The notes beneath the pieces were generated by a model that was given only the letters and a program-made list of their open reading frames with translations, was not told where the DNA came from and did no database searches. This document shows, piece after piece, positions 9,658 to 12,695 of a stretch of DNA of 17,610 nt. The stretch is from positions 334 through 17,943 of the forward strand of contig SHMW01000089.1 in the NCBI GenBank assembly GCA_008080735.1, read 5' to 3'. This DNA comes from Promethearchaeota archaeon. Lineage in GTDB: Archaea; Asgardarchaeota; Lokiarchaeia; Sigyniarchaeales; SOKP01. Numbering within the stretch: the stretch's first letter is position 1; every line of letters begins with the position of its first letter. A program made the translations under genes and the position numbers.

Positions 9658-9682
9658 TTAAAATTATAATGGGTGGTTCTCG

Positions 9683-10051
9683 TTTAAAGTCAAAATCACA
9701 AAAACAGCCTTGAAATATATTTATCGGGAACAAGGTAAAAAGCACAGAAGTAATAACGGTGAAAAACCTTCGATTGCGATCTTCTACCATGAAAGTTCTT
9801 CTTGAACTACCTTCTATTGTGGGAACATGGTAGAAATTGTTGACAAAAAGAAGATTTTAAGAGATTCTGAACCATTTATCCTCTGGGATGATGTCGACGG
9901 AAATCCTCCAATCGAAGTCTTTATAGAAAAAAAGGTTATAGATGAACTCGAACAAAAACGCGAATTACTAATTGATGCGGCGTTGGGAAAAGTTAAAGAT
10001 AAGGATTATGGTATGCTGTTTATTAAAAAGCAAGGAAATGTATATGGATAA
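9683..10051 (+). CDS. Putative HesB-like selenoprotein, paralog 1 (in-frame TGA 9803-9805 = Sec; start uncertain)
   Basis: The frame is open from 9662 to TAA 10049-10051 except for TGA at 9803: FKVKITKTALKYIYREQGKKHRSNNGEKPSIAIFYHESSS-U-TTFYCGNMVEIVDKK...EVFIEK...LLID...IKKQGNVYG. It aligns without gaps to paralog 2 across the TGA and has a SECIS-like hairpin right after the stop. Possible starts: TTG 9710, TTT 9683 (homologous to the paralog's TTG), or ATG 9669 via a -1 shift. Confidence 0.78.
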
Positions 10052-10091
10052 AAATGAACCGATCTTATAAATTCTAGAAGATGGGTGATTT
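10051..10091 (+). promoter_or_regulatory. SECIS-like element (eukaryote/Lokiarchaeota-type) in the 3' UTR of paralog 1
   Basis: ATGA(10054-57), stem ACCGATCTT/AAGATGGGT, apical ATAAATTCTAG, then GA(10087-88)TTT. This gives an AUGA/GA tandem G.A core with apical unpaired As. Confidence 0.8.
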
Positions 10092-10272
10092 GCGGTGCGT
10101 CCGTTATAAAAATCCATATGAATTATGGAATATAATTATAGGAACCTCTATCAATAATTTAGTAAACCACTTTTTATAACAGAATTTTATATTATAATCT
10201 GAATCTTTTATATGGATGGTAATTTTAAGTTAATAAACAAATAACTAAATATAATAAATTAGGGATATTAAA

Positions 10273-10623
10273 TTGAACGTTTCTCTTACGGATGATGCGA
10301 AACGATTAATTAAGGAACAGAGCGAAAAGATTCGTGAACGAGAACCTGTTGATGATATCGTTCTAGCAATTTATCAATATTCCAGCAGGTCTTGATCAGG
10401 GTATTTCTGTACCGATTTGGTTCAATTGGCAGATAAAAAAGATGTTCAAAAACATGGAAGTTTCATAGAGATGAAAGATATATCTAATAATGACGGATTT
10501 GAAGTGTATATTGAAAAGGACACTTTAGATTCATACAAATCATACAAGGATTTGTTAATTGACGGAGAAGAGATGGATCGCTTTGGTCAAAAAGTTGCTC
10601 GATTAACCTTAATTAAAAAATAA
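10273..10623 (+). CDS. Putative HesB-like selenoprotein, paralog 2 (116 aa; TTG start; TGA 10393-10395 = Sec41)
   Basis: TTG 10273 with AGGGA 7 nt upstream. MNVSLTDDAKRLIKEQSEKIREREPVDDIVLAIYQYSSRS-U-SGYFCTDLVQLADKK...FEVYIEK...LLIDG...LIKK*. HesB/IscA-like N-terminal V-x-L-T-x-x-A-x3-I pattern and EVYIE strand, plus a downstream SECIS-like hairpin. Confidence 0.85.
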
Positions 10624-10635
10624 ATCAACACTTTC

Positions 10636-10681
10636 AAAAATACGACCTAATCTTATAAATTATAGAAGATTAGTGATTTTT
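10636..10681 (+). promoter_or_regulatory. SECIS-like element in the 3' UTR of paralog 2
   Basis: AAAAAT, ACGA(10642-45), C, perfect 8-bp stem CTAATCTT/AAGATTAG, apical ATAAATTATAG, T, GA(10675-76), TTTTT. 10642-10679 matches 10054-10091 at 31/38 nt. Confidence 0.8.
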
Positions 10682-10699
10682 CGGGTTGCGCCCGTTTTT
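10682..10699 (+). terminator. Small GC hairpin plus T-run after SECIS 2 (terminator or 3'-end structure)
   Basis: CGGG-TTGCG-CCCG followed by TTTTT. A homologous CGG-TGCGT-CCG follows SECIS 1 at 10093-10103. Confidence 0.4.
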
Positions 10700-10775
10700 A
10701 AAATGTGGTTCTTTCACATTTCTTCTTTTGTTTTTTGTATAAATTCCGAAATGATAAAAAAATTCCATGGATTAA

Positions 10776-12695
10776 TTATTTTTGCTTATTTCGTATATAG
10801 GGGAGTTTCCCACCCGCTACTAGAATTTCTATAGACCGATCATCAAGAGAGTGAACTGCTATTAATTCGGACTTTTTTGTGCGATTTAGTATTTTAGCTT
10901 CACCAGTGTTAAAAGAGGATAAATCAATCTCCAAAGAATCATTTTGTTCAATTTTCTCATAATCGCTCTGATTTTTAAAAGTCAAGGGGACAATCCCAAA
11001 ATTCACTAAGTTGTCTAGATGAATTCGCGCAAATGATTTTGCTATAACCGCTTTGATTCCCAAATATTTAGGTGCGATTGCTGCATGTTCTCTACTTGAG
11101 CCTTGTCCATAGTTCTCGCCCCCCACAATAAATCCTCCATTCTTTTTCCGAGCCCGTTCAGAAAATCTGGGATCAACAGCATTAAATACATATTCGCTAA
11201 TAGCGGGGATATTGCTTCTCAAGGGGAGGATTTTGGCCCCCGCGGGCATTATATGATCGGTGGTAATATTATCCCCAACTTTTAGCAGTACAGTGCCCAC
11301 TAATGTCTCTTCTAACGGGGGAAAGGAAGGCAATGATTTGATATTAGGGCCTCTTATTATGGAAATATCGTGCTCCTCCTGTAAAGGCGGAACGATTAGA
11401 TTATCATTAATGATAAAGGTATCTGGTATATTAATTTCAACCTTTCCCTCACATTTTTGAGGATCGGTGATTTCTCCATGAATAGCAGAAACTGCAGCAG
11501 TTTCAGGACTGACTAGATAAATTTTTGCACTTTGCGTTCCCGAGCGACCCAAGAAATTCCGGTTAAAAGTTCGAATTGTGATCGCATCTGTCGGAGGGGC
11601 TTGCCCCATCCCTATACATGGTCCGCACGTGTTTTCTAAAATCCTTGCACCCGCCTCCACGAGATAATCCATCTCACCCGATTTTATCAGATGGTCTACT
11701 ACTTGGCGTGAACCTGGCGAGATTGTTAGATCGATTGATTCATCGATCGTATTTCCTTTAAGAATCTGCGAAACCATTTTAAGATCTCTTAGGCTTGAGT
11801 TTGTACAACTGCCGATACACACTTGATCTATTTTTATTCCCGCTACCTCACTTACAAATTTTACATTACCGGGACTGTGAGGTAAGGCTATGAGAGGGAC
11901 CAGCTCATCCAAATTAATCTTGATTATTTGATCATATTCCGCATCTGAGTCGGATTTGAGTTCTCTCCAGACCTCTGCTCTTCCTTGAGCTTCTAAAAAC
12001 TTTTTTGTAACTTCATCCGAAGGAAATATGGATGTAGTTGCCCCCGTTTCTGTTCCCATATTTGTTATAGTACCTCTTTCTGGAACGGATAATGTTTTCA
12101 CTCCAGGACCGCTGTATTCTAATATCTTATTTACAGCTCCTTTTACATCAATCCTACGTAAGATTTTGAGAATAATATCTTTTGCTGAAACAAAACTTCT
12201 CAATTTCCCAATCAACTCTACTTTAACTATCTTAGGTGTCTTTAAGTAAAATGGCTCTCCCGCCATCGCAGCAGCAACATCTAGCCCTCCCGCACCGATA
12301 GCGATCATCCCTATACCTCCACTTGTTGGTGTATGGCTGTCGCTTCCCAGAAGTGTTTTCCCTGGAGCAGAAAAGCGTTCTAAATGTATCTGGTGACATA
12401 TGCCATTTCCTGGTCGTGAAAAATATAATCCATATTTAGCCGCTATGCTCTTCAAATACCTATGATCGTCCGCATTTCTAAAATCTGTTTGTAAAGTATT
12501 ATGATCCACATAGCTAACCGAAAGATCAGTTTTAACTCGTGACACACCCATCTCCTCAAATTGAAGATAGGCCATCGTCCCAGTTGCGTCTTGTGTGAGG
12601 GTTTGATCTATTTTTATCCCAATTATTCCTTCGCGGTCAAAATTCCCATCAACAAGGTGTTCTTGCAGTATTTTTTCTGTGACTGTCTTTCCCAT
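10776..12695 (-). CDS. Aconitate hydratase (single-chain, about 640-aa aconitase-family [4Fe-4S] hydratase)
   Basis: QDATG, DHN, GICHQ, GSDSHT, the three cluster Cys in IGSCTN and CGPCIG, TFNRNF, and a fused C-terminal swivel domain with ITTDHI and GQGSSREHA. Confidence 0.9.
   Translation of the reverse strand: MGKTVTEKILQEHLVDGNFDREGIIGIKIDQTLTQDATGTMAYLQFEEMGVSRVKTDLSVSYVDHNTLQTDFRNADDHRYLKSIAAKYGLYFSRPGNGICHQIHLERFSAPGKTLLGSDSHTPTSGGIGMIAIGAGGLDVAAAMAGEPFYLKTPKIVKVELIGKLRSFVSAKDIILKILRRIDVKGAVNKILEYSGPGVKTLSVPERGTITNMGTETGATTSIFPSDEVTKKFLEAQGRAEVWRELKSDSDAEYDQIIKINLDELVPLIALPHSPGNVKFVSEVAGIKIDQVCIGSCTNSSLRDLKMVSQILKGNTIDESIDLTISPGSRQVVDHLIKSGEMDYLVEAGARILENTCGPCIGMGQAPPTDAITIRTFNRNFLGRSGTQSAKIYLVSPETAAVSAIHGEITDPQKCEGKVEINIPDTFIINDNLIVPPLQEEHDISIIRGPNIKSLPSFPPLEETLVGTVLLKVGDNITTDHIMPAGAKILPLRSNIPAISEYVFNAVDPRFSERARKKNGGFIVGGENYGQGSSREHAAIAPKYLGIKAVIAKSFARIHLDNLVNFGIVPLTFKNQSDYEKIEQNDSLEIDLSSFNTGEAKILNRTKKSELIAVHSLDDRSIEILVAGGKLPYIRNKQK

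Follow-up and report, generated by a model that had tools for sequence, protein, structure and literature searches.

It is known that the selenocysteine insertion sequence (SECIS) element of Lokiarchaeota (lokiSECIS) lies near the stop codon and is composed of AUGA, a stem of 9 base pairs (bp), an apical loop of 11 nucleotides (nt) and GA after the stem, with the first five bases of the loop being mostly A and its last base being an ultraconserved G that is usually preceded by A (Mariotti et al. 2016, PMC4989117). The same element was named the type-I eSECIS-like element of Asgard archaea by Huang et al. in 2024 (PMC11227280), with a model that requires only GA on the 5' side, and a lower stem with YGG_CYR pairs is mentioned in that paper. 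The selenoproteins of Asgard archaea named in the available text of the two papers are SelD, FrhA/VhuU, HdrA, FrhD/VhuD, Prx-like, AhpF-N-like and DsbA-like. Note also that Lokiarchaeota are not known to have an SBP2 (Mariotti et al. 2016, PMC4989117). Here we analyse a window of 17,610 nt (the whole stretch of contig SHMW01000089.1 of a Promethearchaeota archaeon, from position 334 to 17,943) in which two tandem paralogous genes on the plus strand, termed gene 1 (9680-10051) and gene 2 (10273-10623), each contain one in-frame TGA and are each followed by a hairpin of this kind, termed copy 1 and copy 2.

Based on our analysis, we consider both hairpins to be functional lokiSECIS (type-I eSECIS-like) elements, with a probability of about 0.9, because of their geometry, the covariation of their stem, the exclusive association of the element with UGA-containing genes, the purifying selection on the codons after the UGA and the presence of the selenocysteine (Sec) machinery, with the kink-turn fold, the binding partner and the actual insertion of Sec at the UGA being predicted from sequence. 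In the mechanism that we propose, each element would be transcribed together with its own gene and would fold in the 3' untranslated region (UTR) into a core of sheared G.A/A.G pairs, formed by AUGA or ACGA with the opposing GA, topped by a helix II of 9 bp and by a loop of 11 nt that is rich in A and ends in AG. The structure would then recruit the archaeal Sec-specific elongation machinery, with the UGA codons at 9803 and 10393 being read as selenocysteine and not as stop.

The core of copy 1 (10054-10088, plus strand) consists of AUGA at 10054-10057, the 5' strand of the stem at 10058-10066, the 11-nt loop AUAAAUUCUAG at 10067-10077, the 3' strand at 10078-10086 and GA at 10087-10088, while that of copy 2 (10642-10676, plus strand) consists of ACGA at 10642-10645, the stem strands at 10646-10654 and 10666-10674, the loop AUAAAUUAUAG at 10655-10665 and GA at 10675-10676. 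Both loops are of 11 nt, with the first five bases rich in A and a terminal AG. Thus, the two copies share the geometry of the lokiSECIS point for point save the C of ACGA in copy 2; copy 1 has the AUGA, whereas copy 2 falls outside the strict definition of 2016, although it has the 5'-GA that the looser model of 2024 requires. With the eukaryotic SECIS (RF00031) the elements share the AUGA/GA quartet, helix II, the unpaired adenosines of the loop, the site in the 3' UTR and action over about 250 nt; by contrast, helix II is shorter here and, between the core and helix I, the 3' strand appears to carry an inserted third helix. With the methanococcal SECIS they share the archaeal origin, the site in the 3' UTR and the service to an upstream UGA, but they have neither the GAA_A bulge nor the G+C-rich upper stem, the core being AUGA/GA instead.

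The sequence-only reading that preceded this work had reported that the two elements (10054-10091 and 10642-10679) are identical at 31 of 38 positions and that two pairs of the stem differ between copy 1 and copy 2, one from C-G to U-A, a compensatory change, and the other from a G.G mismatch to A-U. Rereading of the sequence gives the same count and both changes are real, being those of the third and the fourth pair respectively; a further change, which had gone unmentioned, is that of the first pair from A-U in copy 1 to a C.U mismatch in copy 2, so that standard pairs make up 8 of the 9 in each stem. A search of the genome for the 21-nt stem-loop with at most three mismatches gave only the two copies, and thus the element is not a dispersed repeat. 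The distances of 251 and 249 nt from the UGA to the core and of 2 and 18 nt from the stop to the core were likewise as had been given. The near-constancy of the former cannot, however, be taken as a constraint: across the gene family described below its median is 257 nt, with extremes of 216 and 291 nt and a standard deviation of 12, and it tracks the length of the open reading frame (ORF), and in the other selenoprotein genes of the genome the distances are quite different. The near-equal values of the two copies arise because the paralogous ORFs are similar in length and the SECIS follows right after the stop, the distance from the stop to the core being −4 to 42 nt across the family.

The evidence from covariation is drawn from an unfitted MAFFT alignment of 72 distinct elements of this family, with slid partners and 500 shuffles as controls. 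All of the nine stem pairs show double changes, and 90% of the stem cells are paired, as compared with 40-57% when the partners are slid, the observed score being reached by none of the 500 shuffles. RNAalifold independently predicts the same nine pairs. The covariation that had been noted between two copies thus extends to every pair of the stem among 72 related elements.

The family to which the two genes belong, which is of a predicted IscA fold (see below), was followed by a six-frame search of 400 genomes of the Asgard phylum and was found in 61 of them, including 53 of the 134 in the same family-level group, with nearly every match having exactly one in-frame TGA. A set of 84 family genes from 71 loci was examined. 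The in-frame TGA, lying in the motif S-U-x4-C, is present in 80 of these and the remaining four are Cys forms; the TGA codons are aligned in both paralogs and about 80 homologues, and the Cys forms stand at the same position. For the 77 Sec forms with downstream DNA, a high-scoring element lies −4 to 42 nt after the stop in 73, with scores of 14-19.5 on a fixed-geometry scorer. The other four Sec forms score 11.5-13, below the cut-off: one (L029) was mis-registered by the scorer, having a 10-nt loop, one (L060) has a SECIS-like sequence further downstream than the position picked, and two (L045 and L046) are AA-tailed. The Cys forms, which score 9.5-12, all lack the element, and three of the four stand each between the two Sec forms of its own tandem array. 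These Cys forms within tandem arrays are a natural negative control. Among the 73 elements of the family the 5' core is AUGA in 65, AUGU in three, ACGA in two, GUGA in two and AUAA in one; the loop is of 11 nt in 64, ends in AG in 53 and has at least three A in its first five bases in all 73, and GA directly follows the stem in 72, as it does in both copies here. The ratio of nonsynonymous to synonymous substitution rates (dN/dS) after the UGA is 0.06-0.14.

The arrays are those of loci L013, L022 and L036 (genomes G170, G175 and G176), each with the order Sec form, Cys form and Sec form, where the Cys form has Q-A-C-A-G-S-Y with no second Cys and the SECIS stands on the Sec forms only. In the databases, the proteins homologous to gene 1, which come from 'Candidatus Lokiarchaeota archaeon' and metagenomes, are entered in truncated form and start only downstream of the TGA; both the in-frame TGA and the element are retained on the contigs that encode them. 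It is also noted that W stands at the Sec column in 8 of 14 database homologues, probably because TGA was taken for Trp when genes were called on these contigs; therefore, the public protein sets would hold mistranslated members of the family.

We next consider the genome of 4.15 Mb, which was scanned with a pattern derived from the literature of 2016: ATGA, a stem of 9 bp in which one mismatch was allowed, a loop of 11 nt ending in G and with three or more A among its first five bases, and then GA or AA. There are nine matches, whereas ten simulations under a second-order Markov model gave 1.0 on average; the match of the elements to the pattern is thus not due to chance. All of the seven GA-tailed matches lie 0-30 nt after ORFs with an in-frame TGA, namely those of two VhuD/MvhD proteins (PF02662, E values of 2e-44 and 9e-37), one Prx-like protein (AhpC-TSA), two microproteins, a gene on contig C7 and gene 1. 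The motif is therefore not found mainly beside genes that have no in-frame UGA, and it is lacking behind the Cys paralogs. A relaxed pattern adds a second Prx-like gene, with a 12-nt loop, and copy 2; since the strict AUGA pattern omits copy 2, the earlier warning that an ACGA copy could be missed by pattern searches is well founded. The two AA-tailed matches, on C37 and C83, fall within ordinary coding sequence, and we took them to be chance matches of the kind expected as noise. As for the hosts, we observe the lokiSECIS after a CxxC...CxxU microprotein on C10 (minus strand, 53955-55417), after a small membrane ORF with G-E-P-S-G-U-A-C (C102:10379), and after a gene with two adjacent TGA codons on C7 (minus strand, 60524).

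With these data it can be asked whether the hairpins are instead transcription terminators or stability elements of mRNA 3' ends, with the TGA codons being true stops between short ORFs. The elements do lie at gene ends, a run of five U that resembles an archaeal terminator follows the small hairpin downstream of copy 2, and the RNAfold z-scores of the isolated hairpins are modest (−2.0 for copy 1 and −1.5 for copy 2). However, if this were true, it would be difficult to see why the paralogs of the Cys form have no element even within the same tandem arrays, why the flanks AUGA...GA, the loop length and the loop termini, which a terminator does not need, are conserved, why the protein homology and the purifying selection continue across the TGA, and why the same geometry is present behind the VhuD and Prx-like selenoprotein genes. 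We thus regard an origin as terminators or stability elements as very unlikely as compared with the SECIS function.

The machinery that such elements would serve is present in the genome. There are SepSecS (389 bits, C15:58185-59342), a PSTK-like gene (179 bits) and SelD, the last with one in-frame TGA. No tRNA-Sec was found directly in this genome by Rfam (RF01852) and ARAGORN, although the congeners have one at 50-62 bits; BLAST with the sequence of a congener located it on C15 at about 60227-60370 (minus strand), about 1 kb from SepSecS, with the anticodon UCA, a 9-bp acceptor stem and an encoded CCA. The gene was missed by the two former searches because it is interrupted by two introns, one of about 22 nt after the anticodon and the other of about 28 nt in the T-loop. 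This bears on a further possibility, that TGA has been reassigned throughout the genome (for example to Trp, as in code 4 or 25) and that the hairpins are incidental. The W at the Sec column of several database homologues would be in line with it. By contrast, TGA is the terminal stop in several members of the family, the genes of the Sec-specific pathway are present, including the tRNA-Sec(UCA), true Cys forms align at the Sec position, and in the scan the ORFs containing TGA are restricted to genes with the element 3' of them. A genome-wide reassignment is consequently the least credible of the alternatives that we consider, with hardly any weight left to it.

Several observations count against the identification of both hairpins as functional SECIS elements. 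Each stem contains one non-canonical pair, the G.G in copy 1 and the C.U adjoining the core in copy 2, and the score of the PSTK-like gene is below the curated cut-off of NCBIfam. An Rfam scan of the window with E values up to 10 gave no match to a SECIS family, and in a scan of the genome with SECIS_1 (RF00031) the best match, at 18.8 bits against a cut-off of 35 bits, is located elsewhere; this null result is to be expected, because the Rfam SECIS models are reported to fail on Loki elements (Mariotti et al. 2016, PMC4989117). Moreover, when the genome was searched with a covariance model built from the family (R1), with scoring of 150 out of 5663 first-look candidates, significant scores were obtained for the two copies alone (71 and 65 bits), so that the link to the other selenoprotein genes rests on the pattern scan. 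The model is too specific to the family and to its sequence. R1 also gave three weak matches (C51, C9 and C102:9214), located within ORFs or A/T-rich spacers, which we discarded as chance. The test set by the sequence-only reading, that the element should lie behind other genes with an in-frame UGA, is thus passed by way of the pattern scan, which places the same geometry behind two VhuD genes, the Prx-like gene and other ORFs with TGA. Taking these points together with the evidence above, we find that the claim of the sequence-only reading that each gene has its own eukaryote-like SECIS of the Lokiarchaeota type in its 3' UTR is upheld by the geometry, the covariation, the genome scan and the lack of the element behind the Cys forms.

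The core of copy 2 needs separate consideration. The ACGA at 10642-10645 is real, and in the family it is present only in gene 2 of this genome and in that of its closest relative (L006), the next orthologs (L008 and L011) having AUGA. It could be argued that copy 2 is a decaying and non-functional SECIS, gene 2 then being either a pseudogene or a gene served by a different signal, such as the SECIS of gene 1, since the U of AUGA was called invariant in the published Loki set (PMC4989117), ACGA occurs in only 2 of the 73 family elements and the pair adjoining the core in copy 2 is also mismatched (C.U). However, when the two ACGA genomes are compared over the 75 codons after the UGA, dN is 0.070 and dS is 1.11, the ratio of 0.06 indicating strong purifying selection in both, and the element with the small hairpin that follows it (58 nt) is nearly unchanged, with two differences, while 58% of the synonymous sites differ. 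Other deviations of the core (GUGA in two cases, AUGU in three related genomes and AUAA in one) also occur in intact genes, and the model of Huang et al. (2024, PMC11227280) needs only GA on the 5' side. If the ACGA had a single ancestral origin, selection on the full-length protein and on the element has continued with C in the core, from which it is argued that the variant works. The decay of copy 2 is thus unlikely, and the ACGA core appears, from these sequence comparisons, to be functional. As a separate observation, AUGU (three related genomes) and AUAA (one), at loci L031, L032, L052 and L069, would disrupt a sheared G.A pair in genes that are otherwise intact.

We now turn to the extent of the elements. 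The core coordinates given by the sequence-only reading hold, but its boundaries excluded mini-hairpins in both copies and an enclosing helix in copy 1, and its view of a minimal lower helix is not supported, as there is a mini-hairpin next to the core as well as a helix I of longer range. On the plus strand, mini-hairpin 1 (GCGG-UGCGU-CCGU, 10092-10104) begins 3 nt after the GA of copy 1, and mini-hairpin 2 (CGGG-UUGCG-CCCG, 10682-10694) begins 5 nt after that of copy 2 and is followed by U5. A small G+C hairpin is present 2-5 nt after the GA in every element of the family, typically as (A/G)CGG-N5-6-CCG(U), and across the family it is 92% paired with some double changes. A strict rule, which requires a start within 6 nt and four Watson-Crick pairs with at least two G-C, recovers it in 50 of 70 distinct flanks of the family and in 7 of the 9 SECIS elements of this genome, as compared with 5% of random windows; the remaining two of the nine have a version that contains G.U.

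The candidate helix I of copy 1 is formed on the plus strand by UAUAUGGAU (10041-10049), which overlaps the terminal Tyr-Gly codons and the initial base of the stop, and AUCCAUAUG (10112-10120), giving 9 bp. In the subfamily of gene 1, the last codons (UAU/UAC-GGN, Tyr-Gly) pair with the sequence 3' of the mini-hairpin; in 53 sequences the helix is 72% paired, with one pair alternating between U-A (21 sequences) and C-G (13 sequences), and because the change on the 5' side is between synonymous Tyr codons, this exchange is best explained by pairing of the RNA. The mean duplex energy is −6.5 kcal/mol for cognate flanks, against −4.4 kcal/mol when the flanks are non-cognate or shuffled. When the other SECIS elements of this genome were folded under constraints, most gave a helix I that encloses the core stem and a small hairpin. 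RNAalifold on the MAFFT alignment, on the other hand, recovered neither helix I nor the mini-hairpin. In copy 2 a possible weak, A/U-rich helix I (within 10629-10707, plus strand, 10629-10640 with 10695-10707) consists only of an A-run and a U-run, and it is not secure because a downstream hairpin at 10702-10722 competes with it. From these patterns of pairing, each element seems to be part of a larger structure of three helices, in which the mini-hairpin and the enclosing helix I would turn the core stem into a three-way junction, helix I being insecure in copy 2. Neither the mini-hairpin after GA nor the enclosing helix I is described in the available text of the two papers on this element (PMC4989117, PMC11227280).

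The arrangement may be compared with the k-junction, which is defined by a canonical (C) helix, a bulged 5' strand, G.A/A.G pairs, a non-canonical (NC) helix and, on the strand opposite the bulge, a third helix (Li et al. 2023, PMC10573300; also Wang et al. 2014, PMC4005666). The likeness is one of secondary-structure topology alone, with the tandem G.A core, helix I as the C helix, helix II as the NC helix and the third helix after a short connector, and as helix I is weak or uncertain in copy 2 and the elements are known here from sequence, it would be an analogy rather than an established membership. We put forward only tentatively, as a proposal that we judge somewhat doubtful, that the Lokiarchaeal type-I SECIS in general might be not a simple stem-loop but a three-way junction of k-junction topology, with an obligatory G+C hairpin on the non-bulged strand 2-5 nt after GA, a helix I made partly from the last codons of the ORF and a G.A core continuing into helix II. 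If this proposal is true, the third helix would be part of what the archaeal SECIS-binding factor recognises, having been lost toward the eukaryotic SECIS, and the natural core variants in intact genes (ACGA, AUGU, GUGA and AUAA) would define the tolerance of the core.

The host genes themselves encode small proteins. Gene 1 has its Sec codon TGA at 9803-9805 and its stop TAA at 10049-10051, and it belongs to a subfamily with S-U-T-x3-C-G-N and a C-terminal YG; gene 2 starts with TTG at 10273, has TGA at 10393-10395 and TAA at 10621-10623, and belongs to a subfamily with R-S-U-S-G-x-F-C. The two are paralogs with 32% identity (E value of 3e-15) and with their in-frame TGA codons aligned. No family of Pfam or NCBIfam, including PF01521 and TIGR01911, was matched by the host proteins with E values up to 10. 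The AlphaFold model of gene 2, calculated with 16 homologues, has a predicted local distance difference test (pLDDT) score of 91.5, and its best PDB matches by Foldseek are IscA/SufA and related 'Fe-S biosynthesis' proteins (1r94, 2d2a, 1x0g and others), with a probability of 1.00 and template modelling (TM) scores of 0.54/0.62, whereas a sequence-profile search of the PDB with the host family gave noise only and no match to IscA. Both products are thus predicted to be IscA/HesB-fold proteins of about 115 residues with the motif S-U-x4-C, the likeness to the A-type Fe-S carriers IscA/SufA being that of the modelled fold. They also differ from the HesB-like selenoprotein (TIGR01911), the motif of which is UxGP, and fall outside its sequence model. 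The family is not among the selenoproteins listed in the available text of the two papers (PMC4989117, PMC11227280). The same element geometry serves VhuD and Prx-like genes in this genome.

For gene 1, the first canonical in-frame start is TTG at 9710, yet the homology runs from 9683 onward, and translation probably begins at 9680, with a codon that is TCG here and TTG in the sister genome and that lies 3' of a Shine-Dalgarno-like GGTGG. Nearly all orthologs of gene 1 have such a motif (GGTGG or GGTGAT) 5-8 nt 5' of the codon that precedes TTT-AAA, and this codon is mostly TTG or ATG, in some cases CTG, ATT or ATA, and TCG (9680-9682) here. Shine-Dalgarno-directed initiation at a near-cognate codon looks to be a simpler account of this start than a −1 frameshift (window positions 9659-9713). 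Downstream of copy 2, the conserved hairpin at 10702-10722 (ATGTG-N-CACAT and then a T-rich run) is kept in L006 and L008. It resembles a terminator and is placed between gene 2 and an aconitase gene that is convergent to it on the minus strand (10776-12695).

Finally, we note that since this type of element has been published since 2016, the core result is a confirmation and not a discovery. Three things are new here: the family of the host genes, a core of ACGA that appears to be functional and the proposed extended three-helix architecture. With the IscA-fold family, which is present in 61 of the 400 genomes, the selenoproteome of Asgard archaea is enlarged, and the approximately 73 elements of one family, together with the matched controls of the Cys form, constitute a large natural data set on the Asgard SECIS that includes variants of the core. 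It follows from these variants that searches demanding AUGA miss real elements. The Asgard SECIS is the presumed ancestor of the eukaryotic SECIS, and the extension of the element by a mini-hairpin and by a helix I reaching back into the coding sequence, if it is as proposed, would bear on the protein that recognises the element and on the origin of the eukaryotic form.

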